DNA from: Heterodontus francisci
Lineage: Eukaryota
Reading direction: 5' to 3'
Assembly: GCF_036365525.1 (NCBI RefSeq)
Contig: NC_090415.1
Span: 11,036,001 to 11,100,000, forward strand
DNA: 64,000 bases
Shown here: one piece after another, positions 1,054 to 60,954 of the stretch
Layout: every line of letters starts with the position of its first letter
How positions within the stretch are numbered: position 1 is the stretch's first letter
Made by a program: the position numbers and the translations under genes
Notes under the pieces: model-generated
The model's input: the letters and a program-made list of their open reading frames with translations, nothing else
Database searches by the model: none
What the model was told of the DNA's origin: nothing

Positions 1054-1446
1054 ATATAAATCTTTCATGTGGTTACTTGTGACTGCAGCTGACCAACCTT
1101 ATTTGGCACGCTACATGGAGATAAGGACTTGCACTTCAATGCTCGCATTTGTCCCACTCTGACCCCCACTAAACTGGACGATTCGGTCCTGTTGATGGAC
1201 GGAAGTGCAGAGGGGCGCTACATCCTGATAAGGGAGGGAACTATAGAGAAATTATACGCAGAGTGAAAAAAGAGACGAGTTCGTACTAGCAAAATAGAAA
1301 TGGTTGATGAGGAAGAGGGACTCAGAAAGTCACTGATGTAGATGGATAAGGGCCGGCAAAGGGGTTTGGACGATCTGACCGCTGCGACAGTTTGTGGCTG
1401 TGAGAAGCACAAAATGTGATTGGTTACTTTAGACACCCAATCAGAT

Positions 1447-4587: not shown

Positions 4588-4968
4588 ATGGTTGACGAGA
4601 AGAAAACTGCAGCACCTTCCAAGAAGGGCGCCAAAAAAGTTCTGAAGAAGGCGCCACCAAAGGGCAGCAAGAAACGGAGAAGATCCAGGAAAGAAAGTTA
4701 CTCCATCTACGTGTACAAAGTAATGAAGCAGGTTCACCCTGACACCGGCATCTCCTCCAAGGCCATGAGCATCATGAATTCGTTTGTGAATGATATTTTC
4801 GAGCGAATCGCGGGTGAGGCTTCCCGCCTGGCCCATTACAACAAACGCAGCACCATCAGCTCCCGGGAGATCCAGACCGCCGTGCGCCTGCTGCTGCCCG
4901 GGGAGCTGGCCAAACACGCCGTGTCGGAAGGTACAAAGGCGGTCACCAAGTACACCAGCTCCAAGTGA
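4588..4968 (+). CDS. H2B: Histone H2B, replication-dependent (126 aa)
   Basis: MVDEKK...[27 protein letters not shown]...[29 protein letters not shown] chosen downstream of TATA; stem-loop follows. Confidence 0.97.
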
Positions 4969-5007
4969 ATATCCGCAATGTACTGAAACACACCCAAAAC
5001 ACAAAAA

Positions 5008-5023
5008 GGCTCTTTTAAGAGCC
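5008..5023 (+). terminator. Histone 3' stem-loop (H2B), followed by ACCCA and purine-rich HDE
   Basis: GGCTCTTTTAAGAGCC-ACCCA, then GAAAAAGCT about 15 nt downstream. Confidence 0.95.
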
Positions 5024-5718
5024 ACCCACAACTTCTCTGAAAAAGCTACAACATTGTCTGTATAGTATCGACTTATATTGATTTATATATCAAGTGTCCT
5101 TGCCTTTGTGATCTCTGTTTTACTCCCATAGATTCTGCTTAATGCAGTTTCACTGCCCGTGCGATCTTTCTGTCTCTAACTAATAATGTCCCGTATATAA
5201 ATTACTGGCCACTGACCATTTGTGAGGTTTGTTCTCGGACGTGTTCATATTCGGCCCCTTTTCTGTATTTCGACAATAAAAGCTGATTTAACGCACATAC
5301 ATCAGTTCGCAGTCACTTTTTTCCCTAGTTCAAGTTTGACCTCAGAAATTAATAAGTACATTATCTAGAACCCCGGGTGGTGTCGGAACCCTCCGTCTCA
5401 CACGCTGACACCTGACACTGAAAATCTACACTCCGCTGTTGTCTCCCACGAATAACAAACAATCGTTCATCAGTAATGCGGTATTATTATGAAAATTGAC
5501 ATGAAATGTGCCCGGTTGGAGAATGTTGTGAAAGAGACTTTCTGCTCGCTGTTTTCAAAAAGGACAGAGAGTAAACCCGAATAGATGTCAGAATGTAAAA
5601 GCCAATCTGGAACTTGTTACCAAATGTAGAATAACACAATATGAAAAAGGTTTTATTTATTTAACCGTAAAAAAAGAACTAGAAATGTGATATTTTATAT
5701 TGAAGCCGCCCCAATATA

Positions 5719-6355
<637 letters not shown>

Positions 6356-8165: not shown

Positions 8166-11100
8166 TCGGAGATGAGGTAACCATTCCATGATTCTATCCT
8201 CCAATGGGAACATGAACGTGGTGTTAAGGTGTAGATTGAAATGGTTGAAATGACATTTGAGTTCCAATGAGCTCTGGTGTGTATACTGTATAAATGACGA
8301 GCTACATGTATGCCAGCGATGCTGGTATAGTGGTGAGTATATCTGCCTTCCAAACAATTGACCCAGATTAGATTCCCGGTCATCGCAATGCCCACTCGCG
8401 GTCAAATATATTTCTGCAACCTTGCCATAGAATGTGACAAATGAAAAGCCATGACTGAATTGAAGTCGACAAATATTCTCAACATTATGTTCTTCTCCCT
8501 TAAAGTTGATGGTCAAGTGTGCTGTGGAATTTTGCAGCTTAAAAATGTCAATGCAAATTCAGAAAGAAAGCTTACAAAATATTGTCAACATCCAATCAGA
8601 CTCACTTCCTTGCTTGATCAGCATCGCCCTGCAGCAAGTTTGTTTCCTTCAAGTGTTTATCCAGTTTCTTATTGAAATCATTGATTCTCTCTCCTTCCAC
8701 CACACTTGTGGACAGCGAGGTCCAGCAGGTAAAACAGAAAAAGTTCTTCCTCACATTCCCTTCCATCTCTTGCCATAAACCATCAGTCTGTGTCTCCTAG
8801 TCCTTGTACCATCAGCTAATGGGAACAGGTTATCCTTGTCTAACTTATATACACCTCTAACAAACCTCCTCTCAATCTCCATTTCGCAAAGGAGAACAAC
8901 CCCTTACTTACAGAACACAATCCAGAGTCATCTATCCAAGCTTTTCAGGTGCAAAAGAATAGTTGTGTATTAAGTAGAATAGATAGGAGTATAAAACTAA
9001 GAGACTTTGATAGATCAACTGATTGTCTCTGCCCAATTCACTGGATTTTCTGTATCACCTGAACACTGCTATACTCTGTGTAAAGGTTAGAGCATTTCCA
9101 TGGCTTACATTTATGCAAGAACTGCTATGTCAAGGCTGGATGGCAAAGCATGACGGTCATCTTCACAGGAATATGTCAAAATGCCTTGTTGAGAGATGCG
9201 TCTGTGTGGATGATGCACTGAGTCACGACATAAAGGAAAAGTCATGCAGCAGGAGGGGTCCCACAATGTGGGGGTGATGGATCATGACATATTTTGCCTT
9301 TGTGAATAATAAGGACAGCCACTAGAATAGGACTAATTGTATGCTATGTACATCAATATATTACAGTCTGTTTGAGCTAATGCTTGCTTCATTATAAAAT
9401 GACATTACAAGGCTATAGTCCATTAAAACCTCTCTGTAAGAACAATGGGAGAGATAGGTTGAAGACCACAGCATCCTGACAGGGGGTGAGATGAGATAAA
9501 TAGGACACTGGAGAATTGCAAACTCAAAATGGCTTCCATCAGCGAGAATGTGACCTTTAGTATCCTTGTTAAAATAGAAAGGAACAGGAAGTATCTGTAA
9601 TGTGTGTAGATTGAACCATTAACTAACTAGGGTCAAACAATGATGTCAACTTGGTCCAGTTAGGATACTTCGAACAATTTAAAGCTAATATGGTGACATC
9701 CTTGCACCCAAAGAAGGGTAAAAGAAAGGGTGTTAAGGGACATTGTCGGCACTTACAGAGGGGTCCACGGAACATCGTTATCACACTTAGAAGGAGAAGA
9801 TAGAGTACGGTCAAGAAAACAGCAAGGGAAGCAGAAAGAGAGAAGTCCACGCCCCAGCAAGCACAGAAGCAAGAACCGGTGCTGAGTGATGCTGCATACC
9901 TATTGCTGTTGTTAAACATTCACTTTATCTATCTTAGTTAAGACTAATAAACTCTCAGACTTGATCACAGAACTTGAGTTTGTACCTTGTAGGTCTATTT
10001 TGGCCAATAATCACAGGACATTTTCTGTCACCACTTCCCCTCTCTATTCTATCTCCCTCCTCTCGCTCTCCTCCCTCTGCACTTTATTATTATTGATGAT
10101 GGTCATATTGACCTATTTATTCTCCTCCATCTCAGACAGTCCCCTGCGATTATGGATGACTTTTTACACTCCAGTTTGATGGGTTCTGAAATAGCTGATA
10201 AATCCAATGCATGATCTGCAGACTCTGCCACATGAGGGTTAGGTGGTGTTAGAAGGGTTCAGGTAAATGACCCGTTTGGAGGTATGGATGCTGCCTTCGA
10301 GCCTCGACTTCACATGTTACCGACAAATTTCCCTGAACTGTAAACTATCTTCCCAAATGAGAGATGATTTGAGGACATATCTAAAATGTTTCCACACTCA
10401 GACAGGGGTTCTCCTGCTACGACCAATTTCTGAGCAAAACATCTGCTTCCGGATTCTGCATTTGCAGGTTCTTGGAGGCACCTGTTCAGACTAAGTGAGA
10501 GACTAATACTGATGGTCTGAACACACATAGGCAACAGAAACGACACCAGTTCCCCTCCCTGAGTGCCGGTCACTGCTTCTATCCTGTGTGTAGGATTCAC
10601 CCTGAGTCCCTCTTTCCAGCTTTACCTGCTCTATCTGGAAAAGTGCTGAACCTTTCAGTATTTGGTCTGCTCAAACCGAGTTCAAGGCCTGAGTCGTGAA
10701 CAGAATGTCTCATTAATTCTTTGACTAATACTATGATTGAACAGCAGGTGATGATCGACTCGGCCAAAGATTGGAAATATTCCTGTCCATCAATCTTTCA
10801 ACAGGGATTGCGAGAATCTCCTGGCTGAGAGTGTTTAAGGGATAAAGACCGAGGCATCGGCAACTAACCCCTGAAAATCACAGCAAAGACTGTGTACATG
10901 AGGACATTTAACAACCGGGAGCTGGGACTCTGGGACGGTCCAGCTCTATTCTCACTGTGCTTGTGTGTCCGGTGTAATCGCGTGTCTCTTGTTTCAAATA
11001 AAACGATGAAGATTGCCGTCCGGTATTACTCTCATTGACCTGGGTTTTCACTCGGGTAAAATAAAATGTTGCTGGCTGATATTAACTCTGCAAAGTCCCA

Positions 11101-11364
11101 GCAAACACACCGGCTCCCTCATTCTTCCCATGTTTCTGTCGCTTTGAGAAGAGGGGCTCAATAGTAACAAACACCCTGCAGACAGAGTCCGCAATTTGAG
11201 CATCTAAATGGGACCAGCTGCCAGTTTTATATGTTCCATGTTCCCCCACACTTCCCCTCCCTCCCTCCCTCCCTCCCTCCACCCTAACCACATGTTTGAC
11301 TTTTCAATGTGGACATTGGGGAAAGTTCCCATTGATGTTTATTTGCTGAATTATTGCAGAGATC

Positions 11365-11460
11365 TGCGCACGCGCGAGAAGGGCCTGTCGAATGTGACGT
11401 CATAACGCGGAGAAGAGCGCATGCGCACCCCATCCCCCAGCTCTGCCTCTGAGCGCCATT
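11365..11460 (+). promoter_or_regulatory. CpG-rich promoter-like motif cluster (NRF1 palindrome, CRE)
   Basis: TGCGCACGCGC 11365-11375, TGACGTCA 11395-11402, GCGCATGCGC 11417-11426, in otherwise CpG-poor DNA about 60 bp before an ATG at 11488. Confidence 0.65.
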
Positions 11461-11487
11461 CACTGTGATTGTTTAAATCAGCTGCAA

Positions 11488-12502
11488 ATGGAGACATTAC
11501 AAGCCTGGGGTAAGTGAACAAACAGTATCTGCTCACAGCAGTACAACAGATTTGGGCCCGTGTCTGCCGATGTGCTGATAGATTAGCATTGATTACTGGG
11601 TACATTCAGCGGGAGTGGGGGACAGTTTGTAATGTACATTGTGGAGCAGGAACTGGTCCTGGAACATGGAGTGAGCCGGGGGGGGGAAGGGAGAGGTCTT
11701 TCTCAGGCAGTGTCTGGACAGGGAGAGAGAGACAGAATATGATGAACTCACTATTGAAAATCATTGCTGATTTCTCTCTCCAAACAGTAATGAATGTTAT
11801 AATAAAAAGCAAAATACTGCGGATGCTGGAAATCTGAAATAAAAACAAGAAATGTTGGAAATACTCAGCAGGTCTGGCTGTATCTGTGGAGAGAGAAGCA
11901 GAGTTAACGTTTCAGGTCAGTGACCCTTCTTCAGTAATGAATGTTCCTGGTTCAGATCCAGTATCTCACTATTTATTGTTATTGGATATTGAATAGCAGG
12001 AAAAAAAATGTCTGAACAATAAAGATACGGCAGATTTGAAGGGACCAGGTGAGAAGATTAAAGACACTTTTTTAAACAGTGCTTACTTGTTGTCCGTTGA
12101 ACAATGGGACACGGAAATAGAAATCTGGCTTACGCAAATGTCACTACTCGATCGGGTATTCCAATTCATGGAGCATTGCGGGGCTTGAGGTGTTTCTGAA
12201 TGTCACAGAATTGTTACAAAACCGCTCCAAATACCTGGTAAGCAGAAGCAGAGTTCTGCAGTACTGCAGTGGACTCAGACACTGACACTACTTGTGTCGT
12301 TGACTTTCCTTTTGTGATTGTTCAGAATGTTTATTGTTGAAAAGATTACTTTGATCAATTTTCTGTCTTCTCACTCAGCTGTTATTCAAGTATAAGAGTT
12401 GCCTTTCTTTTCCTGCAGGCAAAGACTTGAAGGAATCAGAATGAAAGTCGTGATTCCTCGACAGAAGAAAACGTGCATCCAGCTCGTTCCAATACACATT
12501 AG
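11488..12502 (+). pseudogene. Unnamed spliced gene, copy A (long exon 1 about 11488-12237; 84-nt exon 12419-12502), disabled
   Basis: Homologous to copies B-D. Reads ...MMNSLLKIIADFSLQTVMNVPGSDPVSHYLLLLDIE*QEKKCLNNKDTAD...EQWDTEIEIWLTQMSLLDRV... across a PLE insertion. Donor G|GTAAGC, acceptor TTTCCTGCAG|, donor AG|GTACAGT. In-frame stops present. Confidence 0.6.
11799..11931 (-). mobile_element. Short Penelope terminal-repeat insertion with 14-bp TSD CAGTAATGAATGTT
   Basis: TSD at 11785-11798 and 11932-11945; empty site in copy B near 20035. Sequence matches positions 1-56. Confidence 0.85.
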
Positions 12503-12942
12503 GTACAGTATCATTCACAAAGCACACTGAGATGGTCAGGTCGTCATTTCCACTGTAACAAACAAAATAAGTAGTCAGACCCACACTGATTCCAAGGTCG
12601 AGAGACACACTATCAATCCAATAGTCAAATAGAGCAGTAGAGATAGGAGTTGTTTCTATTTCACTCCAGCTGACTGGTAGATACATCAATCACAGTCCAA
12701 AAACACACACATTATCAGATTTGAATACACTGTGTCACCTTGGCTACAATTCAAATATCAAATCTTAAACAGAACAGACAAAATGTATCTGAATGAAAGC
12801 TACAGAATGAATCCCAATAACACACCCCACAATATAAACTGAGATACAAATTACACAGCAGTCCAAACATGTCACTAAGGGTCAGACAACAACATACACG
12901 ATTAATTCATTCTCTACAAACCAATGGAATTTGACATTACAT

Positions 12943-13284
12943 AGTTAGTTAGTTAGAGATGCAGCACTGAAACAGGCCCTTCGGACCACCGAGTCTGTGC
13001 TGACCATCAACCACCCATTTTATACTAATCCTACATTACTACCACTTCCCCACCTGTCCCTATATTTCCCTACCACCTACCTATACTAGGGACAATTTAT
13101 AAAGGCCAATTAACCTGGCAACCAGCAAGTCTTTGGCATGTGGGAGGAAACCGGAGCACCCGGAGGAAACCCACACAGACACAGGGAGAACTTGCAAACT
13201 CCAAACAGGCAGTACCCAGAATTGAACCCGGGTCGCTGGAGCTGTGAGGCTGCGGTGCTAACCACTGCGCCACTGTGCCGCCCC
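12943..13284 (-). mobile_element. tRNA-derived SINE (HE1/V-SINE-like), full length
   Basis: 5' GGGGCGGCACAGTGGCGCAGTGGTTAGC (A box), CCCGGGTTCAATTC (B box), V domain, (CTAA)n tail. Absent at the paralogous site near 21398. Confidence 0.92.
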
Positions 13285-13479
13285 AAATCAGGTCATGCTC
13301 TAAATTTGAAAGATCGTCATTCATAATTGCTTTTGCAGAGCTACAAATTGGATACCAAGCTGCAACTCACAAACAAGAATTGAATAAAACCTACAGCAAT
13401 AAAATATTGTTAATCCTTATTTTAAATTAAACACAACTAAACACATATTGATACATTAATGAGTTAAACAAAGCGTTGC

Positions 13480-13860
13480 CAACACAGTGCCTGAGATACA
13501 CCTTAAGTCCTGAATACAGCAGAATCTCAACTCACATACAGCACAAAGGCACATAGATGCAGAGTGAATCCTCCAGTCAAACAGGGTGCCAGAGCCTCTC
13601 AGATCAAGAATGAATCACGTATACAGACACAGTATCAGTAACTTACATATATTGAATGTGTCTATCCTGTGTGCACAGTAGAGATACTGGCAGATACAGA
13701 ATGTCTCCCACACTTACATACTCCCCCATAGACAGACACATAAGGAATGCATTCCAAACACACATTCAGTACCAGAGACATCAAATTCAGAATAAACCCG
13801 ACATTCACACACAGGATCAGAGACTGAAAGTCCTGAATGTGGCCCACATTCGTATACATA
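13480..13860. repeat. Very degenerate copies of the 41-bp tandem repeat
   Basis: Recurring CACACTTACATA / ACTGGCAGATACAGAAT-like words. Confidence 0.45.
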
Positions 13861-17304: not shown

Positions 17305-19858
17305 TGTAGACGAGGGAATTGAGAGGTAAACATGCTGGGACCAGTGTTCTGGCAAACTGCATAACTAGGGAAGCAGAGAGGGCTTTGAACGAAACAAAGG
17401 GGTAGAGGGATCAATCTTGGGTAGGTGCAACAAATCAAGGTGTAGAGTCAAGGTAAGAGAGCAGAATAGTAATATGGGAAATGAAGACCAGTGAATGGCG
17501 GAAGGGACAGAGAGAAAAAAACCGAAGAACACAGCAACAGTCAACACGAGGTGTTAGAAAGATAACAAAAATATAAGGCTCTGTATGTGAATGCACATAG
17601 CATTCATAACAAGGTAGAGGAACAGATAGTGCACATTGAAGTAAATCAATATGATATAATAGCCATTACAGAGACATGGTTACAAGACAACAATGGTTGG
17701 GTCCTGAATATTGAGGGGTATACAGCATTCAAGAAGAATAGGAAGTTAGATAAAGGTGAAGGGGTTGCACTGTTAATCAAGGATGGCGTTGGTACAATAG
17801 TTAGAGATGACCTTGGTTCCGGAGATCAGGATGTAGAATCGGTTTGGGTGACAATGAGGAATAGTTGGGGAAAGAAGTCACTAGTGGGAGTTGTGTACAG
17901 GCCACCGAGCAATAATGACAATGTAGGATGAAGTATACAAGAACAAATTTTGGGTGCTTGTGATAAAGGGATGGAAATAATAATGGGGATTTTATTCAAC
18001 ATATAAACTGGAAAAATGAGATTGGTTATAGCAGCCTGGACGAAGAGTTCATAGAATGCTTTTGAGATAGTTTCTTTGAGCAGTACATTCTAGAACCAGG
18101 TTATATTAGATTTGGTATTGTGTAATTTGACAGGATTAATTAATGACCTCAGTGTCAAGGGACCTCGAGGTAGCAGCAACCACAATATGACAGAATTTTG
18201 CGTCCAGTTTGAAATTGAGAGGAGTGGGTCTAAGACTAGTATTTTAAACTTAAATAAGGACAACTATGAGGGCATGAAAGCTGAGCTAGCTGAATTGAAC
18301 TGGGTTACTGGGCTAGGAGATAAATCAATAGAGAAGCAGTAGCAGACATTTAAGGCGGTCTTTCTGAATGCTCAAAGGAAGTATATTCCTCCAGTAAAGT
18401 AAAATTCCAAGGGGAGGACCCACCATCCATTGTTCACTAAAGAAGTTAAGGATAGCCTCAACCTTAAGAAAAAAGACGAGTGGCAGGTCAGATGATTGGT
18501 CAGAATATAATGAATGGCCGAGAATGACTGAAAGGTTAATCAGGGGAAAATAAATTAGATTATGACAGCAAACTAGCTAGAAATGTAAAAACGGATAGCA
18601 AGAGTTTCCATAGGTATTTAAAAAGGAAAAGTATAAGTAAAGTGAGTGTTGGTCCTTTGGAGAATGAGGATGGGGAGTTAATAGTAGATAATATGGAAAT
18701 GGTGGTTGAAATGAACAAATATTTGGCTTCTGTCTTCACTAGAGGATACACAAAATATTTCAGTAATAGCAGTTAATCAGGAGGTGGAAGGAAGAGAGGA
18801 ACTTGGTGAAGTTACAATCACCAGAGAAGTGGTACTGAATAAACTGATGGAGCTGCTGGCTGACAAGTCTCTGGGTCCTGATGGGCTTCATCCTCGGGTC
18901 CTTAAAGTTATGGCTGCTGAAATAGTTGACTCGTTATTTTTTCAAGATTCGCTAGATTCTAGAAAGGTTCCATCAGACTGGAAAGTAGCAAATATATCCC
19001 TTCTATTCAAGAAGGTGGGGAGGCAGAAATTGGGTAACTATAGGCCAGTTAGCTTGACCCCTGATTCAGGGAAGGCATTAGAATTGATCATTAAGGAGGC
19101 TATAGCTGGGCCTTTAGAAAAACACAAGGTCATTGGAAATGTTCAGCATGGCTATGTGAAAGGGAAATCATGGTTAACCAAAGTGTTCGAGTTCTTTCAA
19201 GGAGGAAAATGCACTGGGGATAAAGGAGAGCCCATTGACATACAGTATTTGGTTTTCAAGAAGGCCTTTGTCAAGGTGCCACATGAAAGGTTATTGTGCA
19301 AAGGTTATTGACCACATCTTGAATACTGCATGCAGTTTTAGTCTCCATATTTCAGGAAGGAAGTAAATGTGTTGGAGGCGTTTCACAGGAGGTTTATTAG
19401 ATTGATACCTGGAATGAGTGGGTTGTCTTATGAGGAAAGGTTGGACAGACTGGGCTTTTCTTCACTGGAGTTTAGAAGAGTGAGGGGAGACTTGATTGAA
19501 GTGTATAACATCCTGAATGGTCTTGACAAGTGGATGGGGAAAGGATGTTTCCTCTTGTGGATGAGTTCATAACTCGGGGTTGCTGTTTTCCAATTAGGGG
19601 TCGCCATTTTAGGACTGAGATGAGATTTGTTTTCTCTCCGAGGGTTGTGCAACTTTGGAATTCTCTGCCTCAGAAGGTGGTGGAGGTGGGGTAATTGAAT
19701 ATTTTTGAGGCAGGGGTAGATAGATTCTTGTTAGGCAAGGGAATCAAAGATTATCAGGCATAGATGGGAGTGTGGAATTCAACTCAGAAATTGATCAGCC
19801 AAGAACAAATTGAATAGCGGAGCAAGCTCGAGCGGCTGAATGGTCTACTTCTGCTAAT
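17305..19858 (+). mobile_element. CR1-group LINE (APE, partial RT, 3' tail), internally deleted
   Basis: NAHSIHNK...IAITETWL...GVVYRPP; GPDGLHPRVLK; NYRPVSLT; SYEERLDRLG. Confidence 0.88.
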
Positions 19859-19859
19859 T

Positions 19860-20964
19860 CAGCAGGACTGGGGGACTGTTTGTAATATGCACTGTGAAGC
19901 AGGAACTGGACCCGGAACATGGAGTGAGCCAGGGGAAAGGGAGAGGTCTTTCTCGGGCACTGTTTGGACAGGGAGAGAGAGACAGAATATGATGAACTCC
20001 CTTTTCAAAATCATTTCTGATTTCTCTCTCCAAACTGTAATGAATGTTCCTGGTTTGGATTCAATATCTCACTGTTTGTTGTTGTGGATAGTGAATTGGG
20101 TGGCAGAGTGGCACAGTGACTAGTACTGCAGCTTCACAGCTCCAGTGACATTGGTCCGGTTCTTCGTACTGCTTGTGTGGATTTTGCAAGGTTTCCCTGT
20201 GACTGCATGGGTTTCCGCTGGGTGCTCTGGTTTCCTTCCACATGCCAAAGACTTGTATATTGATAGGTAAACTAGCCATTGCAAAAAAAAAAATGCCCCT
20301 GGTGTAGGTATGTTGCAGGAGAATAGTGGGGACTTTAGAGGTAGAAATGGGATTAATATAGATTGGTATAAATGGGTGGTTGGTGGTCAACATGGACTCG
20401 ATGGGCTGAAGGGCCTGTTCAGGTATTGTATATCTCTATGAATGGCGAAAAAAAAATGGCTGAATAATGAAGACACGGCAGATTTTCAAAGACTGTCTAT
20501 TGCAGGATCAGGTGAGGAGATTAAGGACACTTTTTTAAACAGTTATTACTTCTTGTCCATTGAACAATTGGACATGGAAATAGAACTCTGGCTTGTGCAA
20601 ATGTCACTTCTCTATTGAGTCGTCCGAGTCATTGAGCAGTGCTGGGCATGGGTTGTTTCGGAATGTCACAAAATTGCTGTAAAACTGCTCCAAATACCTG
20701 GGAAACAGAAGCAGAGTGCTGCAGTACTGCAGTGGACTCAGACACTGACACTGCTTATGTGTGAACTTTCCTTTTGTGATTGCTCAGAATGATTATTATT
20801 GAAAATATTACATTGATCACTTTTGTGTCTTCTCACTCACCTGTACTTCAAGTGTAAGAGTTACCTTTTTTTTCTGCCAGGCAAACACTTGAAGGAACCA
20901 GAACGAAAGTCATGACTCATCAATAGATGGAAAAGTACCTCCAGCTCGTTCCAACACATATTAG
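19860..20964 (+). pseudogene. Unnamed spliced gene, copy B (5' end lost; 84-nt exon 20881-20964), interrupted by a SINE
   Basis: Close to copy A: RERQNMMNSLFKIISDFSLQTVMNVPG...KKWLNNEDTADFQ...EQLDMEIELWLVQMSLL. Exon bounded by TTTCTGCCAG| and AG|GTACAGT. Confidence 0.6.
20097..20438 (+). mobile_element. tRNA-derived SINE (HE1/V-SINE-like), diverged
   Basis: GGGTGGCAGAGTGGCACAGTG head, V domain, GGGCTGAAGGGCCTGTT tail. Confidence 0.85.
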
Positions 20965-21624
20965 GTACAGTATCAGTCACAAAGCACAGTGACACGGTCA
21001 GGTCGTCATTTCCACTGGAACAAACAAAAGAAGTAGTCAGAACCAGACTGATCCCAAAGAGACACATTATCAATCCAATAGTCAAACAGAGCATAGAGAT
21101 AGTATTTGTTTCTATTTCTCTCCAACTGACTGGTAGATACATGAATCACAGTCCAAAAACACACACATTATCTGATTTAAATACACTGTGTCACCTTGGC
21201 TACAATTCAAATACCAAATCTTAAACAGAACAGACAAAATGTATCTGATTGAAAGCTACAGAATGAATCCCAATAACATACCCCACAATATAAACTGAGC
21301 TACAAATTACACACCAGTGTAAACATGTCACTAAGGGTCAGACAAAAACATACAGGATTAGTTCATTTACTACAAACCGATGGAATTTGACATTACATGT
21401 CAGGTCATACTCTAAAATTGAAAGATTGTCATTCACAATTGCTTTTGCAGAGATACAAATTTAATAAAAAGCTACAACTCACAAACAAGAATTGAATAAA
21501 ATCTACAGCAATAAAACATTGTTAATCCATATTTTATATTAAACACAAGTAAACACATATTGATACATTAATGTGTGAAACAAAGAGTTGTCACCACAAT
21601 GCCTGAGGTACATATGAAGTACCG

Positions 21625-23165
21625 GATATTCCAAAATTCTGTAGACTCTGGAGCAGTTCGTACAGATTGGAGGGTGGAAAATGTAACCTCACTATTTAAA
21701 ACAAGGAGGGAGAGAGAAAAAAAGGAATTACAGACCAATGAACCTTACATCAGTAGTGGGGAAAATGCTGGAGTCTATTATAAAGGATGTGCTAGTTTTC
21801 CGAAAGAGAAGTCATGCTTAACAAATCCACTGGAATTTTTTGAGGATGTAACTAGCAGACTCGATAATGGAGAACTAGTGGATGTGGTGCCTTTGGATTT
21901 TCAGAAGGCTTTTGACAAGGTCCCACATAAGAGGTTAGTGTGCAAAATTAAAGCACATGGGATTGGGGGTAATATACTGGCAGGGATTGGGAATTAGTTG
22001 ACAGACAGGAAACAGAGTAGGAATAAATGGGTATATTTCTGGGTGGCAGGCAGGGTCCAGTGAGGTACTGCTGGATACTGTGCTTGAGCCCCAGCTATTC
22101 ACAATATATCTTACAGACTTGGGTGAGGGAAGTAAATGTAACATTTCCAGGTTTGCAGATGACACAGAGCTGGGGGTGGGGTTTGTGGGGGGGATTGTGA
22201 GCTCTGAGGAGGATGCAAAAGGCTCCAATGTGATTTGGACAAGTTGGGTGAGTAGGCAACTGTGTGGCAGATGAAATATAAATTGGATAAAAGTGAATTT
22301 ATCCACTTTGGTTTTAAAACAGTAAAACAGATTATCTGAATAGTGATAGATAGGGAAAGGGGGAGGTGCAACGAGACCTGGGTGTCCTTGTACATCAGTC
22401 GCTGAAAGCAAGCAGTCAGGTGCAGCAAGCAATTAGGAAGGAAAATGGTATGTTGGCCTTCGTTGCAAGAGGATTTGAGTACAGGAGCACAGATGTCTTA
22501 CTGCAGTTATACAAGGCCTTGGTGCGACTCATCTGGAGTATTTAGAGTCATAGAGTGATACAGCACTGAACCAGGCCCTTTGGGCAACCGAGTCTGTGCT
22601 GACCAACAACCACCCATTTTTATACTAATCCTACATTAACCCCATTTGACCAACAATCACCTATTTATACAAATCCTACATTAATCCCATATTCCCTACC
22701 TCTCACCACCTTCCCTACCACCAACCGAAACTAGGGGCAATTTACAATGGCCAATTTACCTATCAACCTGCAAGTCTTTGGCTGTGGGAGTAAATCAGAT
22801 CGCCCGGCGGAAACCCACATGGTCACAGGAAGAACTTGCAAACTCCGCACAAGCAGTCCCCAGAACCAAACCCATGTCGCTGGAGCTGTGAGGCTGTGGT
22901 GCTAACCACTGTGCCACCGTATTGTGTGCAGTTTTGGTCTCTTTATCTTAGGAATTTTGTTCTCGCCTTGGTTCCTGGGATGGCAGGATTGATGTACGAG
23001 GAGAGATTGGGTCAAGTAGGCCTACATTTACTTTGGTTTAGAAGAATGAGAGGGGATCTCATAGAAACCAATAAAATTCTAACAGGATTCATGCTGAATG
23101 CAGGGAGGATGTTCCCGATGGCTGGGGAGTCCAGAACCAGGGGTCACAGTCTCAGGATACGGGGT
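21625..23165 (+). mobile_element. CR1-group LINE RT fragment interrupted by a SINE
   Basis: KSCLTNPLEFFE...LDFQKAFDKVPH, SRFADDTEL, YEERLGQVGL. Confidence 0.85.
22543..22918 (-). mobile_element. tRNA-derived SINE nested in CR1, TSD GTATT
   Basis: SINE head, V domain and tail; GTATT at 22538-22542 and 22919-22923. Confidence 0.85.
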
Positions 23166-28635: not shown

Positions 28636-29016
28636 ATGGTTGACGAGAAGAAAACAGCAGCACCTTCCAAGAAGGGCGCCAAGAAAACTCAGAAGAAGGC
28701 GCCAACAAAGGGCAGCAAGAAACGGAGAAAATCCAGGAAAGAAAGTTACTCCATTTACGTGTACAAAGTGATGAAGCAGGTTCACCCTGACACCGGCATC
28801 TCCTCCAAGGCCATGAGCATCATGAATTCGTTTGTGAATGATATTTTCGAGCGAATCGCGGGTGAGGCTTCCCGCCTGGCCCATTACAACAAACGCAGCA
28901 CCATCAGCTCCCGGGAGATCCAGACCGCCGTGCGCCTGCTGCTGCCCGGGGAGCTGGCCAAACACGCCGTGTCGGAAGGTACAAAGGCGGTCACCAAGTA
29001 CACCAGCTCCAAGTAA
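28636..29016 (+). CDS. H2B: Histone H2B (126 aa)
   Basis: Canonical H2B fold; N-tail [26 protein letters not shown]. Confidence 0.97.
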
Positions 29017-29055
29017 ATATCCGCAATGTACTGAAACACACCCAAAACACAAAAA

Positions 29056-29071
29056 GGCTCTTTTAAGAGCC
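29056..29071 (+). terminator. Histone 3' stem-loop (H2B)
   Basis: GGCTCTTTTAAGAGCC-ACCCA. Confidence 0.95.
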
Positions 29072-29818
29072 ACCCACAACTTCTCTGAAATAGCTACAAC
29101 ATCATCATGATTATCGAATTTTTTTTCTGTTAATATGAATACTTTGCAAATTTTTGATGGCGGTTGTAAATCTCTGTTTAAATCAGTTCAGGTTAATGCA
29201 GATTCATTTTGGCCCCTTTGCTATATTTCGAAAATGAAAGCTGATTTAACGCATGATTTAAAGATGTTCTCAGTTACTTGGTTGCCGTGTTGAAGTTTGG
29301 CTATCTTTATGAATAAGTACATTGTTAAGAAACCCCGTTGGTTTAGGCACCCTCAGTCTCTAACCCGTGACACTGAAAATCTATACTCCGCTTTTGTCTC
29401 CTACGAAAAGGGATCAATCTAGAATCAGTGAGACAGTATAATTACGAAGATTGACCTGAAATGTGTCCGGTTGCAAAATACTGTGAATGAGTCTTTCAGC
29501 CGCTGGTTAGACTGCATCATGAAAAAGAATAAAGCAGAATACATGGCGGATTTACAAAAGCGAATCTGGGACAAAATGTGGAATAAAAAAATGAAAACGT
29601 TTTTGCAATGTTTTCTGCAAAACAATATAACCTATAAATGTGATATTCTATATTGATGCCGCTCCTTGTTTTACAAATATATTGGCGGGCTTTTCAAATG
29701 TGAAATATCGTTGGGAGCCTGACCATTTCGCGCTCTTATTTTCCGCTCTCAACTCACTGTCTTCTTGTGATTGGTGAATTGAGCAGCTCTCTGATTGGTT
29801 ACATGTACAGCACAATGA

Positions 29819-30328
<510 letters not shown>

Positions 30329-30358
30329 AGCGGCCTGACTTGAATCTGTGAACCCAAA

Positions 30359-30374
30359 GGCTCTTTTCAGAGCC
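30359..30374 (+). terminator. Histone 3' stem-loop (H2A)
   Basis: GGCTCTTTTCAGAGCC-ACCCA. Confidence 0.95.
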
Positions 30375-30792
30375 ACCCACTTTATCTGTGAAAGGGCTGG
30401 TTACTGTCTGAAAGACTGTAATATTACACTGTTATCATTGTTTTGTGTTGGAATGAAGTGTACTGGATTTTGGCATTTAGTTGCTCATCAGATGAAATGC
30501 ATTCTAATTCCCTCAGACCCTATTGGAAAGGCACTTTTACCATTCTACCCTTTATGTACCACAAACATTTGTTCAGTCCTAAAACGATCGCCGGTCTATT
30601 AAAATGCGCTGTGCACATTGGTATCGCGACTCTCGATCTTACAACTGTCACGTCATGAAATCTCCAGCTACCGGATGCAGATATAAGTAATTGTGTCTCC
30701 CGGCTTTGAGTAAATAAGTGATCAAAACCTTCTGAGACGTTTATGTGCTGGAATGAACAAGAGATCACAACTCTTTCTTTTGTCGATTTGGT

Positions 30793-30808
30793 GGCTCTTA
30801 AAAGAGCC
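30793..30808 (-). terminator. Histone 3' stem-loop (H3)
   Basis: Minus strand GGCTCTTTTAAGAGCC-ACCAAA, then HDE-like AAAGAGTTG. Confidence 0.95.
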
Positions 30809-30851
30809 GTTGTGGTATTTGATGCCGAACTCAGTTCCGGGCAGGGTCAGT

Positions 30852-31292
<441 letters not shown>

Positions 31293-31319
31293 TTAATGCT
31301 GAAGCTGCTCAGGGACTGC

Positions 31320-31491
31320 CTATTTAAGACAGTCGAAGGACCGCCCTAATGTTGTGATTGGATGAAGCCCCGTCCATCATCCAATTTGAAACGATGTCTG
31401 GGATGGAAAAGGGCGGTGGGAATTGCTGCTCCCTGATTGGTTGAACTGCAACTGAAATTTCATCAATTTCAAAAAGCCCGCCAATTTCAAA
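31320..31491 (-). promoter_or_regulatory. H3 promoter: TAAATA, CCAAT boxes, E2F/CHR-like element
   Basis: TATTTA 31321-31326, GATTGG about 31355 and 31435, TTTCAAAAAGCCCGCCAATTTCAAA 31467-31491. Confidence 0.7.
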
Positions 31492-31857
31492 TTAGCAAAC
31501 TACTCAAAGATTAAATAAAACCTAATTCGGCGGGAACAATTATAAAATCTCTGCTTTTAGCGTGATTTTTTTCCGCCCTGGATCCCCCTCTGTGTCTTCC
31601 AACACGGTTTGAATTGGGATTCATTCCCTGTTCGGTCTCTGGCGGGAATAAAGCTCCAGCCATTTCTTACTCCAACGGGAGTAAATCCGTTTCCACATCT
31701 TTACCGGCAGTTCAGGTCGGCAATGGACATGATCAAATGCAACCCAATACTGATCTGATAAAGTCCACATAACATTGGATGAGCTACAACAATTTCACAT
31801 CCCAAGACATCCCCGCTGCAGTTTCAAGGTCACTTATCTCTATATGAGGTTTTGGGT

Positions 31858-31873
31858 GGCTCTTATAAGAGCC
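31858..31873 (-). terminator. Histone 3' stem-loop (H4), loop TATA
   Basis: GGCTCTTATAAGAGCC followed on minus by ACCCAAA. Confidence 0.9.
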
Positions 31874-31903
31874 TTTTGTTTTTGGTAGACAAGGTCGATT
31901 TGT

Positions 31904-32224
<321 letters not shown>

Positions 32225-32270
32225 TTACACAAACCTAGTTCTGAATGAGAAACGAGTAGTTTCTGCTGCC

Positions 32271-32415
32271 TTTTTATACAGCCTGCCCCGACCTGACTGA
32301 GAAAGAGACAGAGAGCCAGAGGCGGGTCTGGAGGAAACTGAGTGATAGACAGAGCAGAGAAATGTCTTTGATCCTCTCGCTCCGCCTCCCACTTGCTCGA
32401 ACCGCCAATTCAAAC
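32271..32415 (-). promoter_or_regulatory. H4 promoter: TATAAAAA, site-II-like CAGGTCGG, E2F/CHR-like element
   Basis: TTTTTATA 32271-32278, CCGACCTGA about 32288, CCGCCAATTCAAA 32402-32414. Confidence 0.65.
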
Positions 32416-32931
32416 AAAAAACAATTCTCGACATTAGAGCTCAGCATAAAACATGGAGATTCGGCCTTTGTCACCAATGATAACAAAAACCGGCGGTCTA
32501 AATACGGATCTGTAACAATTAAAAGTTAGTAAAATACAAGCCTAAGTGCAGTGCTTCCGATCACAAGTCAACCTGTTTCCGCACACCTCTCCTCCCAGAC
32601 GGATTGAGCAGTTTACTGAAACCGAACCCCAGCTGAATTATACAAAATCATGTATTGGGGTTTGAGATGTGACGCGGGGTATCTCGCCCGTGTTACTGTG
32701 TTACAGGCTGTCACCCTGAAACGGGCATGAACTGAGACTTCACCGAACATATACCCAGGTACAGTGAGGCCCGGACATCCCTGATTTGTTACAGAGAGTG
32801 AGGAAGGGCTGGGTTGAGAGTCACCAGGGAACCTGGATTTACTTCAAATCATTTCTAGGTGAAATGTGCACACGACTGCGGGACAGGGATCATTTGATCG
32901 GGGGATCAGCTCTTTCCTGAGAGACGTGGGT

Positions 32932-32947
32932 GGCTCTGAAAAGAGCC
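32932..32947 (-). terminator. Histone 3' stem-loop (H1)
   Basis: Minus strand GGCTCTTTTCAGAGCC-ACCCA, then GAAAGAGCTG (HDE) at 32907-32916. Confidence 0.95.
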
Positions 32948-32983
32948 TTTGGGTTCAGATGTCTACAAGTTTCCCGTGCTGTT

Positions 32984-33697
32984 TCACTTCTTTCCAGGGG
33001 CTGCTTTCTGAGCCTTTGCTGCTTTCGGCTTCTTCCCGCCCCTTGATGATTGAACTTTCTTGGGCGGCTTTCCGCCCGTGGCCCTCTTGGTTTTATTGGC
33101 ATTCTTCGCTGGAGATTTTTTTGGAAGCGTTGCTTTCTTTACCGCCTTCTTTGGCGTTGCCGTCTTCTTGCTGCTCACTTTCTTGGCTGCTGTCTTCTTG
33201 CTGCTCACTTTCTTGGCTGCTGTCTTCTTGCTGCTCACTTTCTTGGCGACTATTTTCTTCCCTGGGGATTTCTTGGCTGTTTTCTTTGTGATCTGTTTCT
33301 TGGCAGCTGTTTTCTTCACTAAAGATCTCTTGGCTGCTCCTGTCTTAATCTTCTTCACCACATTTCCCTTCTTTTCCTGTTTCGCGATTTTGAAGGTGCC
33401 GGAGGCCCCCGTGCCCTTCGTCTGCACCAGGAAGTCTTTCGCCACAAGCCGCTTGATACTTTGCTTGATTTGGAACTTGCTCTTCTCCACATCGACACCT
33501 TTAACACGCAGAGCCTTCTTTATTGCCTGCAGTGACATCCCACTGCGGACACTGCATTCCGCCACAGTCTTGAGGATCAGCTCGCCCAACTTGGGACCGC
33601 CTGACCCCTTCCGAGGAGCCGCCTTCTTCTTCTTGGGAGTCTTGACTTGAGCGGCGGCGGCTGGAGGAGCCGTTTCGGCGGCTGCAGTATCGGTCAT
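32984..33697 (-). CDS. H1: Linker histone H1 (237 aa), divergent globular domain
   Basis: MTDTAAAETAPPAAA...GPKLGELILKTV...LVQTKGTGASGTFKI, then Lys/Ala-rich tail with S/TPKK motifs. Stem-loop downstream, H1 box upstream. Confidence 0.95.
   Translation of the reverse strand: MTDTAAAETAPPAAAAQVKTPKKKKAAPRKGSGGPKLGELILKTVAECSVRSGMSLQAIKKALRVKGVDVEKSKFQIKQSIKRLVAKDFLVQTKGTGASGTFKIAKQEKKGNVVKKIKTGAAKRSLVKKTAAKKQITKKTAKKSPGKKIVAKKVSSKKTAAKKVSSKKTAAKKVSSKKTATPKKAVKKATLPKKSPAKNANKTKRATGGKPPKKVQSSRGGKKPKAAKAQKAAPGKK
33162..33247 (-). repeat. 30-bp coding minisatellite, about 2.9 perfect copies (AKKVSSKKTA)
   Basis: GTCTTCTTGCTGCTCACTTTCTTGGCTGCT repeated. Confidence 0.95.
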
Positions 33698-40265: not shown

Positions 40266-40789
40266 AGTTGTCGGCTGAAATGTCAGATTCGTTTTATCTC
40301 GAAAGATCCACCCGGGGAGACTGACGATACAAACTTATCTCTCACTTATTTGGTGCCACAAGCAGCCACATTATTAATCTCACAATCTGAGGACGTGTCC
40401 GAAAGTGAGTCACACAATGTCCCAAATGTAACTTTTTTTCTGCCCTGTTGAGGTCTCTGCAATGTTTCAGCTCGAACCGTTCGCTGTGACACTCAGTGAC
40501 AGACATTTTCAATGTGATTACATGAATCTAGGACTGTTACTGTCAGATATTAAATCCTGCGCGATCCCAGCAAACACACCGACTCCCTCCAAGGATTGCT
40601 TTGAGAAACTGGGCAAACATACTGCAGAGAATAATCTCAAATTGAACTTTATAAAGGGGTAATCTCCCAGATGTGAACCTTCTCTACCTTACCCGCAGCC
40701 CCTGTTCCATTGCTCACAATGTGATAAAACTGAACTGAATAAAGTTCCAATTGTTTGTATTTTTGTTTTTCAAAGCGTTGCCGAAAGAA

Positions 40790-40852
40790 GCGCATGCGCG
40801 GTAAAGCCCCGCCCACGCCTCTGATCGTTGATGACCGACAGAGCGCATGCGC
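40790..40852 (+). promoter_or_regulatory. Promoter-like cluster: two NRF1 palindromes around a GC box
   Basis: GCGCATGCGC 40790-40799 and 40843-40852; GCCCCGCCC 40806-40814; ATG at 40925. Confidence 0.7.
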
Positions 40853-40924
40853 CCCCCTGTGCCTGCAAGGCTATTGAACGGCATTTATTCAAAGAGGGGA
40901 AAGGGTTTGTTTTTAACAGAGGGA

Positions 40925-42309
40925 ATGGAGATATTACAGTATCGGGGTAAGTCAGCAAACAGCAGTCTCCTTCCAGCAGCACTTTGTTTGGGGAAACTTG
41001 TCCGCAATCTGGCTCAGAGATCGTCATTGACTTTGGGGCAAGTTCAGGAGGGTTGCGAGTTGTTTGCAAGAGACAGAGTGAGGCAGGAAGTGATCCGGTA
41101 ACATGGAGTGAGCGGCGGAAGGCAGAGGCATTTCTTGGGCTGCGTGTGCACTGCGTAAGTGAGACAAAACGTGAAGAAGCTGCTGTTGAAATTCATGGCT
41201 GTTTTTAACCTCAAACCTGTAATGCTTGTTCCTGGTTTAGCTCCTATTTCACGCTGTTTGTTGTTATTGACAAGTGAATAGTGAAAACAGAGCCGGACTG
41301 TTGGCATTTATTGCAAGGGGGATGGAATATAAACGTCAGTTGTTGGTGAGACCTCACCTGGATTACTGGATACAGTTGTGGTCTCCTTCGCTCATGAGGG
41401 ATATATACGTGCATTGGATGCAGTTCAGGCAAGGTTCGTTCCGTTGCTTCCTGCGATGAAGAGGTTGCGCTTTGAGGAAAAGGTTGAGCAGGTTGTGTTA
41501 CACTCATTGGAGTTTGTCATGATCAGATCTAATCTTATTGAAAAATGTAAGATTCTGAGGGGTCTTGACAGAGTAGATGCTGCAAAGATATCTCCCCTCG
41601 AGGGAATCAAGAACCACGTCGCGCAGTTTCAGAATAAGGGGTCTCCCATTTCAGACAGAGGTAAGGAAGAATTTCTTCTCTCAAAGCGTCATTAATCTAT
41701 GGAATTTTCTACCCCTGAGAGCAGTGGATGCTGATGATTAAATATATTCAAGGATGAGTTAATTTTTTGATCTACAAGGGAGTAATGGGTTTTTCGCCAG
41801 GCAGAATAATGGAGCTGAAGCCAAGATCAAATCAGACATTATTTTATTGAATGGTGGATCAGGCTGGAGAGGCTGAATGGCTGACTCCTGCTCCTAGTTC
41901 TTAGGTTATTATATTATAATGCCAGATGGAAATAGAAATCTGACCTGCACAAATATTCCTGCTCCATCAGGTCATCCCAACCTTGGAGCAGTGTAGATGT
42001 TGGCTTGTTTCTGGATGTCCCAAAATTGCTGTGAAACTGCCAAGACATCTCGTCAGCAGATGCTGAGAGCTGCAGTGGAATCAGACAGTGATATTCTTTG
42101 TATTTCTGTTTAGCATTTGTGATTAGTCATAATGATTATTCATTGAAATGTTACATTAATCTTATTTCTAGCTTCCAACTCAACTGCTCGTGACTTACAA
42201 GACATAGTTTTCTTCCTTTCTGGCGGTGAATAGTTCAAGGGAGCAGAATGAATGTGATGATTCCCAGGCACAAGGGAAAGTGCAGTCGGCTTCTTCCATC
42301 ACAGACAAG
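40925..42309 (+). pseudogene. Unnamed spliced gene, copy C (exon 1 broken by CR1; 84-nt exon 42226-42309)
   Basis: MEILQYRGKSANSSLLPAALCLGKLVRNLAQRSSLTLGQVQEGCELFARDRVRQEVIR*HGVS...QNVKKLLLKFMAVFNLKPVMLVPGLAPISRCLLLL, homologous to copy A. Exon VNSSREQNECDDSQAQGKVQSASSITDK|GTACAGT with acceptor AG mutated to CG. Confidence 0.6.
41295..41915 (+). mobile_element. CR1-group LINE 3' fragment inside copy C
   Basis: LAFIARGMEYK...LVRPHLDYWIQLWSP; duplicated at about 44150-44790. Confidence 0.8.
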
Positions 42310-42479
42310 GTACAGTACCACTCCCATAGGCCTTCAGTTCATGTCATTGTCACAAGGAGCAGATGTAGTCAAACTCTCACTGATCCCAAGTTCAGAGACA
42401 CATTTCCAATTCAGCAATCAAACAAAGCAGAAGAGACAGACATTGTATCCAATCCATTCCAACTCAACACAATAGTAAT

Positions 42480-44062: not shown

Positions 44063-44065
44063 GTT

Positions 44066-45182
44066 TCTCAAACCTGTAATGCTTGTTCCTGGTTTAGCTC
44101 CGGTTTCACGCTGTTTGTTGTTATTGAAAAGTGAATAGTGAAAACAGAGCCGGACTTTTGGCATTACCTGCAAGGGGGATGGAATATAAATGGAGGAAAG
44201 TTTTGCTACAAATTTGCAGGGTGTTGGTGAGACCTTACCTGGAATAGTGGATACAGTTGTGGTCTCCTTCGTGCATACGTGCATTGGATGCAGTTCAGGC
44301 AAGATTCGTTCAGTTGGTTCCTGAGATGAAGAGGCTGACTTATGAGCAAAAGGTTGAGCAGTTTGTGTTACAAACATTGGAATTAGTAATAATCAGAGCT
44401 AATCTTATTGAAAAGTGTAAGATTCTGAGGGGTCTTGACAGAGTAGATGCTGAGAAGATATCTCCCCTCCTGAGGGAATCAAGAACCACGTCGCACAGTT
44501 TCAGAATAAGGGGTCTACCATGTTAGACAGAGGTAAGGAAGAATTTCTTCTCTCAAAGCATCATTAATCTATGGAATTCTCTGCACCAGAGAGTAGTGGA
44601 GGCTGGATTATGAAATATATTCAAGGATGAGTTAAACTTTTGATCTACAAGGGAGTAATGGGTTTTTGGCCAGGCAGGATAATGGAAATGAAGCCAAGGT
44701 CAAATCCGACATGATTTTATTGAATGGTGGATCAGGCGCGAGAGGCTGAATGGCTGACTCCTGCTCCTAGTTCTTAGGTTCTTATATTGTAATGCCAGAT
44801 GGAAATAGAAACCTGACCTGCACAAATATCCCTGCTCGATCAGGTCGTTCCAACCTTGGAGCAGTGCAGATGTTGGCTTGTTTCTGGATGTCTCAAAATT
44901 GCTGTGAAACTGCCAAGACACCTCGTCAGCAGATGCTGAGAGCTGCAGTGGAATCAGACAATGATATTCTTTGTATTTCTGGTTAGCATTTGTGATTAGT
45001 CATAATGGTTATTAATTGAAATGTTACATTAATCTCTTTTCTAGCTTCCACCTCAACTGCTCGTGACTTACAAGACATAGTTTTCTTCCTTTCTGTCGGT
45101 GAATAGTTCAAGGGAGCAGAATGAATGTGATGATTCCCAGGAACAAGGGAAAGTGCAGTCGGCTCCTTCCATCACAGACAAG
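44066..45182 (+). pseudogene. Unnamed spliced gene, copy D (partial tandem duplicate of C; 84-nt exon 45099-45182)
   Basis: Near-copy of 41210-42470, offset 2873 bp at the exon. MEIET*PAQISLLDQVVPTLEQCRCWLVSGCLKIAVKLPRHL then VNSSREQNECDDSQEQGKVQSAPSITDK. Confidence 0.6.
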
Positions 45183-45349
45183 GTACAGTATCACTCCCAT
45201 AGGCCTTCAGTTCATGCCATAGTCACAAGGAGCAGATGTAGTCAAACTCTCACTGATCCCAAGTTCAGAGACACATTTCCAATTCAGCAATCAAACAAAT
45301 CAGAAGAGACAGACATTGTATCCAATCAATTCCAACTCAATACTGCTGA

Positions 45350-47185
45350 AAATTAGGTAAAGTTCAAAAGCAGAACCCACTATCAGATTAAAAGGCACTC
45401 TGTCAATCTCACAAGAGGGACGCATCCTGGAGACAGAGAATCTCACCCTCACAAACCTGAAACTGATGTTTACAAAATTCATAGAACGTAAACAGACAGA
45501 CACAGAGTGAAATTCACATTTACAAATTATTAAAGAGTTTAAGTAAAGATTAAAACCTCCAGCCACTGAAGGGAAACTGACAGCTACAGAGAAGAAAATA
45601 AAACCACTCACATGCAAGAGACTGTCAGATAGAGAATCACACCAGAGTCACTTAACAGAGACAGACAGTTACCATGTAAAACCCATGGACACGTTGCAGA
45701 GACTGAGATGTTCAAAGGAAAAGCAATTCTTGAATGACAGAAATTGAAAGATAAGAATAACACACATACTCATGTAGTAGACGTTGATAGCTGCAGAAGA
45801 AAAGAAAATGTGCTCACACACCTATCAGGAACTGTAAGTTGCAGTTTAAAACTTACAGTTACAGAGCAGAAATCGACAGATTCAGAAAAAGGCCCCATGT
45901 CACAGACTAGTGTTTGAAAGATACAGAATAAAACCACACTATATTACCTTAACTTTACGGGTCCAGCTTAAAACCGACACTCACATACCAGAAGACAACT
46001 GGTGCAAAGTAAAACTCACTCAAGTAATAGAAACTGACAGATACAGATCAAAAACTGCAATCATATCCCAGAAAATAACAGGTACAGAATAAAACAACAG
46101 TCACATATCAGAATCTGGCAGACAGAGAAATAAAACCACCTTCATTTTTCATAAACTGACAGATACAGACTAAAAACTACATTCATTTACTATCAATGCG
46201 CAGGTACAGATTTAATCCCTCATTCACTTAACAGAAACAAACAGGTATAGGGTAAAGCACAGACTCAAATTCCAAAAATTGAAAGATCCAAAATAAACCC
46301 ACCTTCACACACCAGCAACTGACAGAAGAAGATTAAAACCTTCTCACAATTCAGACAGTAACAGGTACTGAATAAATGCCACCCTCACATAAGAGAAACT
46401 GGCAGAAACAGATTTTAGCCCAGACTCGCATAGGAGAAACCAACAGGTACTCATTAATATCTACTTCCACACATCAGAAATGAGGAGATACAGTATAAAT
46501 GCCGCACTTAACTACCAGAGACTGACAGACACAGAGTGAAATCCATAATGAATTGCAAGAAGTTAACAGTTAAGAGAGTGAAAGCCTCTCATCCACAACA
46601 GACACTGACAGATACAGAGCAACACACACATAATTAAGAAGATTCATATATCTGATACTGACAGATACAGGTTAAAACTCACACAGACAGAAAATAAAAT
46701 GACAAGTTCAGAATAAAATTGTCAGTCACATATCAGAGAATGACAATGTACAAAGTAAACCTCAGCCAAATGTCAGAAACTGGCATGTACAGATTAAAAC
46801 TCACATTCACATCCGAGAGAATGTAGAGATGTGGTGGAAAATCCCCACTCAAAAACCAGACTGAAACCCTTACTCTTATATCAGACAGTGACAGAGACTG
46901 GTTAAAAACCACAGCTACACATGAGACATTTAAGGGCACAGGTTAAACCTTAAATTGGCTACCAGACAATCAAAGATAAAGTGTGAACTCCCACTCATAT
47001 ACACAAGAATGTAATATTAACTGTCAAATCCACACTCACATACCCTATACTGATGGGGACAAAGTACAAGCCAGAACACACACACAACAGAAGCTGAAAG
47101 GTACAGAATAAGACGTTTCTCACATAAAACAAACTGACAGGTACAGTTAAAGCCACACTCAAAATCCGAAACTGACAGAGGTAAA
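45350..47185. repeat. Degenerate 41-bp tandem repeat array
   Basis: Same motif; 45760-47185 is paralogous to 15840-17310. Confidence 0.72.
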
Positions 47186-59567: not shown

Positions 59568-59606
59568 ATATCCGCAATGTACTGAAACACACCCAAAACA
59601 CAAAAA

Positions 59607-59622
59607 GGCTCTTTTAAGAGCC
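59607..59622 (+). terminator. Histone 3' stem-loop (H2B)
   Basis: GGCTCTTTTAAGAGCC-ACCCA. Confidence 0.95.

Positions 59623-60438: not shown

Positions 60439-60954
<516 letters not shown>

Follow-up and report, generated by a model that had tools for sequence, protein, structure and literature searches.

The analysed window is a 64,000-nt stretch of the 6.0-Gb Heterodontus francisci assembly (C45:11036001-11100000; positions given without a contig name are those of the window). It contains a full histone set (H2B, H2A, H3, H4 and H1, with stem-loops) at 28636..33697 and H2B/H2A pairs with stem-loops at 4588-6355 and 59187-60954, which form the context of the module described here. Self-comparison of the sequence showed that the two ends of the window are repeats of each other, so that the window represents approximately one unit of a tandem array; its LINEs and SINEs are of a shark-like kind. 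The orientation of the array units changes block by block across C45:8.8-14.3 Mb, and a cluster of C2H2 zinc-finger genes occupies 0.4-2.9 Mb of the same contig. A minus-strand LINE at 1498-4398 retains an intact 966-aa endonuclease/reverse-transcriptase frame and ends just upstream of the H2B promoter, with partial copies of the same element at 38.4, 52.4 and 62.2-63.4 kb. A tRNA-like remnant (8316-8387; 31.1 bits with Rfam, negative with ARAGORN) is located upstream of the first copy of the module.

Four homologous copies of the module, A to D, are present on the plus strand of the window, as the first-pass annotation had recognised, with identities of 86-89% (A/B), 90% (C/D) and 67% (A/C and A/D). 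The homologous core spans 11340-12940 in copy A, 19857-21398 in B, 40740-42466 in C and 44064-45410 in D, and around copy A the duplicated module extends beyond it in both directions: the upstream part (10550..11340) is 72% identical over ~830 bp to E-type copies on C21/C50, and the downstream part (12503..13800), split by a SINE at ~12945-13280, gives colinear 70-76% matches to the E and F subfamilies. At 11800..11937, copy A carries an inserted short, very-high-copy element (depth near 1e6) with a target duplication of ~10 bp, which is missing from copies B, C and D and from two natural copies elsewhere in the genome (L128 and L152). Copy B (19857..21628) has its 5' end cut by a LINE fragment and is interrupted by a SINE at ~20098-20438. 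Copy C (40560..42466) possesses two NRF1 sites (40790 and 40843) and an intact exon-1 donor, is interrupted by a LINE fragment at ~41300-41920 and has lost the exon-2 acceptor. Copy D (44064..45410) is a 5'-truncated duplicate of C that also lacks the acceptor; the sequence after it consists of degenerate A/C-rich repeats up to ~47200.

The word GCGCATGCGC occurs at 11417-11426 and 40843-40852, with ATGs following by 61 and 72 bp at 11488 and 40925, respectively. The sequence features of the proposed gene start are present in copies A and C, whereas the 5'-truncated copies B and D have neither promoter nor ATG. A similar distinction applies to the 84-nt exon said to be kept in all four copies. 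The spacing ending in AG/GTACAG does recur in each (12419-12502 in A, 20881-20964 in B, 42226-42309 in C and 45099-45182 in D), but in C and D the segment is preceded by CG instead of AG, which makes it unusable as an exon there. Copy A would be the only copy in the window that still works.

The splice signals of copy A outline two short plus-strand leader exons. Predicted exon 1 has its 3' end at 11488..11509 and is followed by the donor GTAAGT (11510-11515), which is intact in 24 of 24 A-type pieces; over all subfamilies the GT is found in 39 of 55 pieces and is missing in E, H and J, which counts against the module as a gene start. A second candidate donor, CAG/GTGAG at 12049..12054, might serve as an alternative end of a longer exon 1 (GTGAG in 41 of 50 covering pieces). 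The sequence of 12370..12418 comprises a branch-point-like CTCAC, a pyrimidine tract and a CAG acceptor, the AG of which is present in 72 of 104 pieces overall and in 23 of 23 A-type pieces. Next comes the predicted non-coding exon 2 (12419..12502), recognised by its splice signals and a depth peak, which would measure 84 nt, or 80 nt with a donor 4 nt upstream. The donor of the 84-nt form, as the first-pass annotation had placed it, shows GT in 102 of 104 pieces and in 23 of 23 A-type pieces; the stronger-looking donor 4 nt upstream (GTAGGT or GTAAGT) shows it in 65 of 104 and has been altered by mutation in each of A to D. A further donor proposed at 12238 could not be upheld, with GT in just 4 of 19 A-type copies.

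Eight sequencing runs contained the stretch in part, and depth was taken from X1, X2 and X5 (probable RNA) and X8 (recorded RNA). These data are contigs that carry neither strand nor expression level, and their depth pools every paralog, with none assigned to copy A. With this in mind, depth peaked over exon 1 in X1 and X2 (442 and 790 vs 13 and 143 in the next bin) and over exon 2 in X1, X2 and X5 (812-3,664 vs 100-400 around it). In X8, which covers 9 of 30 bins with a word share of 0.06, a 189-nt contig aligned at 12418-12503 only, with 4 differences; a lone exon-limited contig of this kind is a hint. The peaks cannot be put down to DNA copy number, since the genome candidates numbered 777 for the exon and 538 for the intron, a 1.4-fold difference, and exon 2 is no better conserved than the intron. 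RNA splicing is hence suggested as the simpler cause of the exon-shaped peaks, and the spliced-gene anatomy suspected from the letters gains a hint of support from them and from the retained splice signals. Three observations weigh on the other side: X1, X2 and X5 are only probable RNA, X5 has no peak over exon 1 (depth 33), and no splice junction (12237>12419 had been proposed) was found among 15 of the 52 joints, those being repeat-derived or genomic.

The protein that these exons were thought to encode did not withstand analysis. The first-pass annotation had described a frame of about 200 codons and assigned it to a birth-and-death gene family whose intact members were likely to lie elsewhere. 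This frame exists by threading only: in 7 of 8 clusters (one truncated singleton omitted) the changes were distributed 35/33/37 over the codon positions with a dN/dS of 0.92, and the other five frames of the same stretch gave 0.61-0.93. Between A/B and C/D, for which a dN/dS below one had been expected, values of 0.66-1.03 were obtained vs 0.25 for the H2A control. The frame is broken by the majority of indels, since lengths that are multiples of 3 accounted for 18 of 140 in pairwise comparison (a count of non-independent events that includes alignment noise in J and K). The stretch at 12114..12237, which supplied the proposed peptide and is intronic under the new reading, bears no coding signal, and exon 2 had no codon bias in the subfamily alignment. 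When exon 1 is spliced to exon 2, the frame from the ATG meets a stop after 15 residues in 17 and after 18 residues in 2 of the 19 A-type copies, and in the F subfamily it stops at codon 4. A second stretch of 32 codons gave noisy dN/dS values of 0.30 (A/B), 0.34 (A/C) and 1.54 and 1.68 (A/E and A/H), the former two being the ones that speak against a non-coding module.

Searches beyond the window pointed in the same direction. The threaded frame is open for 57-104 codons in the A, B, E and H types, which would suit a coding family; the longest open frame in a six-frame search was 161 codons and most were 90-107, among 150 scored out of 2,279 candidates; these 150 belonged to a single subfamily, a selection that leaves a coding family some room. 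No intact copy occurred among these 150, and natural copies free of TE insertions (L128, L152, E and H types) had no ORF in common. None of 4 peptides matched Pfam, the ESM atlas gave no usable match, and homolog searches with two peptides found none. When a profile built from 8 peptides was run over 1.84 billion proteins, it returned one match, an unnamed singleton which was rejected as an artefact, being a translated 67-residue tandem repeat. Similarly discarded was a minus-strand ORF of 103 codons (12375-12686) that is open in the A type and cut in B, with an empty Pfam result and an acceptor not common to F, G and H. Overall, the block shows no sign of protein coding and exons 1-2 have no coding capacity; with neither codon-position bias nor an intact homolog found, a coding family is extremely unlikely.

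Upstream of the leader exons, copy A has a CpG-rich, promoter-like region (11341..11487, plus strand) with an NRF1 site at 11417-11426 and a second NRF1-like word near 11366. The observed/expected CpG ratio is 0.9 here vs 0.45 for the window, with promoter values of 0.9 and 1.0 over ~180 bp that exceed the 0.6 taken as the limit for CpG retention; the CpG-rich part, ~150-200 bp long, stays below the classical island length. The NRF1 word was the top-scoring 10-mer for conservation among 1,128 windows (0.97 vs a mean of 0.62) in ten subfamily representatives, six of which cover it, although this score is raised partly by local alignments anchoring there; 6 of 5,000 column shuffles reached it. 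In 41 of 51 pieces, the word reads GCGCATGCGC or GCGCCTGCGC, both given as NRF1 motifs in PMC3575792. In the 19 A-type copies, the TG/CA share at 11 promoter CpG sites was 0.07, compared with 0.42 for the intron and 0.21 for the SINE, with similarly low decay in three further segments of 1-4 sites each. Nearby are words which we take to be CRE-like, GC-box, ETS-like and YY1-like. Based on the conserved NRF1 word and the CpG retention, the module can be classed as a putative NRF1-type CpG promoter. The earlier suggestion of retained CpG promoters consequently holds for copies that still have one, and these look unmethylated judging from the low CpG decay; it fails for B and D.

Nucleotide diversity among the 19 A-type copies is highest in this promoter (0.077 vs ~0.03), which counts against an active promoter module. 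The adjacent 11488-11799, by comparison, has a diversity of 0-0.012 vs 0.03-0.04 elsewhere: 11488-11510 does not vary at all and the 290 nt that follow have a value of 0.012, which reflects either constraint or a recent conversion sweep. The high promoter diversity would be at home in a silent passenger, namely the 5' end of an ancient gene which lost its body, was amplified for no other reason than its position within the histone repeat unit, and today is neither transcribed nor functional. The divergence, about even over 3 kb, the many truncated or TE-filled copies and the missing splice junction fit such a relic as well. It would not account for an NRF1 word and CpGs retained across 25-35% divergence, for depth peaks shaped like exons, or for the invariant 11488-11510 with its little-varied continuation, and we regard it as unlikely.

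The count of four copies, correct for the window, greatly understates the abundance of the module. A genome motif search gave 362, 431 and 1,499 matches for three motifs, the last being 30 nt long and searched with up to one mismatch, and none for any reversed control. The first 100 matches per motif give the locations; among these listed matches, the module is found on C21, C28, C35, C45, C50 and many scaffolds, with a concentration in histone-gene arrays, while C1-C20 hold 2 matches to the most frequent motif, both 300-bp fragments, and none to the other two. Genome searches with copies A and D placed the best 40 of 2,482 and the best 40 of 1,456 candidates, respectively, on C45 at 8.8-14.3 Mb, and the union of three lists comprised 68 A-type places with a median gap of 67 kb. 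A total of 74 core copies fell into 8 clusters that are 64-86% identical, with copies of greater divergence at the array edge; altogether, there are about ten old subfamilies within this identity range. Copies occur in both orientations, including head to head. The association with histone genes noted at the outset was well borne out, as 14 of 20 ten-kb module loci contain them and an H2B gene and a module segment moved to C28 together. At dispersed sites, in contrast, a histone gene lies within 20 kb in only 1 of 10 cases, which counts against the link.

More than 1,499 non-coding copies in both orientations might also be the work of a transposable element or solo LTR, so far uncharacterised, that favours histone loci. 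Its homology would be expected to end at fixed points, but that of the module extends ~800 bp beyond the NRF1 word on the upstream side, reaches at least 13800 in the other direction and then passes into degenerate A/C-rich repeat; the ends are variable and cut by unrelated insertions, and copies share their flanks within long duplications. Defined termini, target duplications and genome-wide dispersal were absent from the copies and motif places examined. The distribution, including the near-absence from C1-C20 among the listed matches, and the lack of termini argue against such an element, which is very unlikely. The shared long flanks, the lack of fixed ends and the histone clustering indicate segmental duplication rather than transposition.

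Several individual loci deserve a record. At L152-L153 (C28:4.26 Mb), an H2B gene and a TE-free A-type module were copied beside a two-exon GPCR gene, presumably GPR139-like. An 85-bp piece of the first intron of the module has become a minisatellite of ~30 units at L150 (C21:63.157 Mb) and L154 (C28:42.311 Mb). At L136:6780-7135 (C5:40.82 Mb), unrelated, transposase-like DNA harbours an A-type fragment of 345 bp that starts at the exon-1 donor, the start expected of an insert derived from an intron; this is a single event, and chance is possible. One E-type copy has exon 2 and its acceptor tandemly duplicated (L080:1700-1950). A histone H4 gene is represented at L049:5425-5560 by its 3' half, which has a stem-loop-like end and is fused straight to the degenerate repeats that follow the module.

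Such neighbours raise the question of whether the module is the promoter and 5'-UTR exons of a downstream coding gene, for instance a zinc-finger gene, a GPCR gene or spliced replication-independent histone genes. The housekeeping type of promoter anatomy agrees with this, as do an exon 2 that ends in phase 2 and, in several subfamilies, contains an ATG in frame, the orientation of window copies B and D towards H2B/H2A genes 7-14 kb away, the H4 half directly after the repeat tract at L049 and the GPR139-like gene 15 kb downstream of a TE-free copy. In the samples examined, however, the candidate genes did not fit. The GPCR possesses its own exon 1 and was therefore ruled out, and the histone genes come with promoters and stem-loops of their own. 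A zinc-finger leader was rejected because none of 7 zinc-finger regions (200 kb, a small sample of such loci) had a module match below E 0.05; two zinc-finger 5' regions read by eye differ from the module, and neither the window nor 200 kb of cluster DNA from C21/C50 contains a C2H2 array. Considering also the lack of codon bias in exon 2, a coding-gene leader appears quite improbable.

Probably, then, the block is a multicopy gene-start module with no coding signal that is copied together with histone genes and likely drives a spliced non-coding RNA from its intact copies. In this scheme, segmental duplication would copy the module along with the histone genes, and NRF1, to judge from the sequence, could bind its site and keep intact copies unmethylated. 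Pol II would start just downstream of the NRF1 site, exon 1 (ending at 11509) would be spliced to exon 2, and the RNA would then extend across repeat and LINE sequence. Most copies would be passengers, exemplified by B and D, which lack promoters, and by C and D, which lack the acceptor; selection, if any, would act on promoter activity and not on the RNA sequence. No 3' end or third exon was found, which weakens this reading. The product is apparently not a structured non-coding RNA or miRNA, as Rfam and folding were negative and revealed no conserved RNA structure (best E 0.28; covariation term +1.05).

The module is real and non-coding, a multicopy, histone-linked case of promoter and leader duplication. 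With its recognition, a spurious 'new protein family' disappears, and gene predictors and readers are alerted to a block which they will encounter time and again in the histone clusters of sharks. Should the promoters be active, this would be a vertebrate histone locus with about equal numbers of non-histone promoters and histone gene groups; if they are silent, the subfamilies still serve as markers of array growth. A more far-reaching and rather doubtful idea is that shark histone arrays have a family of more than 1,000 NRF1 promoters of their own, preserved over some ten ancient duplications, whose non-coding transcription would cross the TE-filled spacers independently of the cell cycle and so hold multi-megabase histone loci open and unmethylated or feed small-RNA silencing of incoming LINEs. 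No such module was found in the titles and abstracts of the literature searched; a repeat library in supplements could hold the block.

Among known systems, elasmobranch histone gene clusters are described as co-located with tRNA loci (bioRxiv 10.1101/2025.06.08.657570). The present locus resembles them in its large histone clusters, the small chromosomes and the tRNA remnant in the window, and differs by an interspersed promoter module, which goes unmentioned in the part of that preprint available to us. With vertebrate NRF1-type CpG-island promoters, the module shares the NRF1 word, a high CpG ratio, a short first exon with a strong donor and nearby words of the four kinds named above. It departs from them in having more than 1,000 copies, a CpG-rich part of limited length and no downstream coding gene found. 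Also comparable are multicopy lncRNA loci and duplicated 5' gene fragments that lie within segmental duplications, of which primate duplicon-derived transcribed pseudogenes are an example: these, too, combine a promoter and leader exons with the absence of a gene body, mosaic flanks and many dead copies. The module differs in that no parent gene was identified, in its roughly ten divergent subfamilies and in its tie to histone arrays. It belongs with the duplicated 5' gene fragments and would function as NRF1 CpG promoters followed by leader exons ordinarily do.
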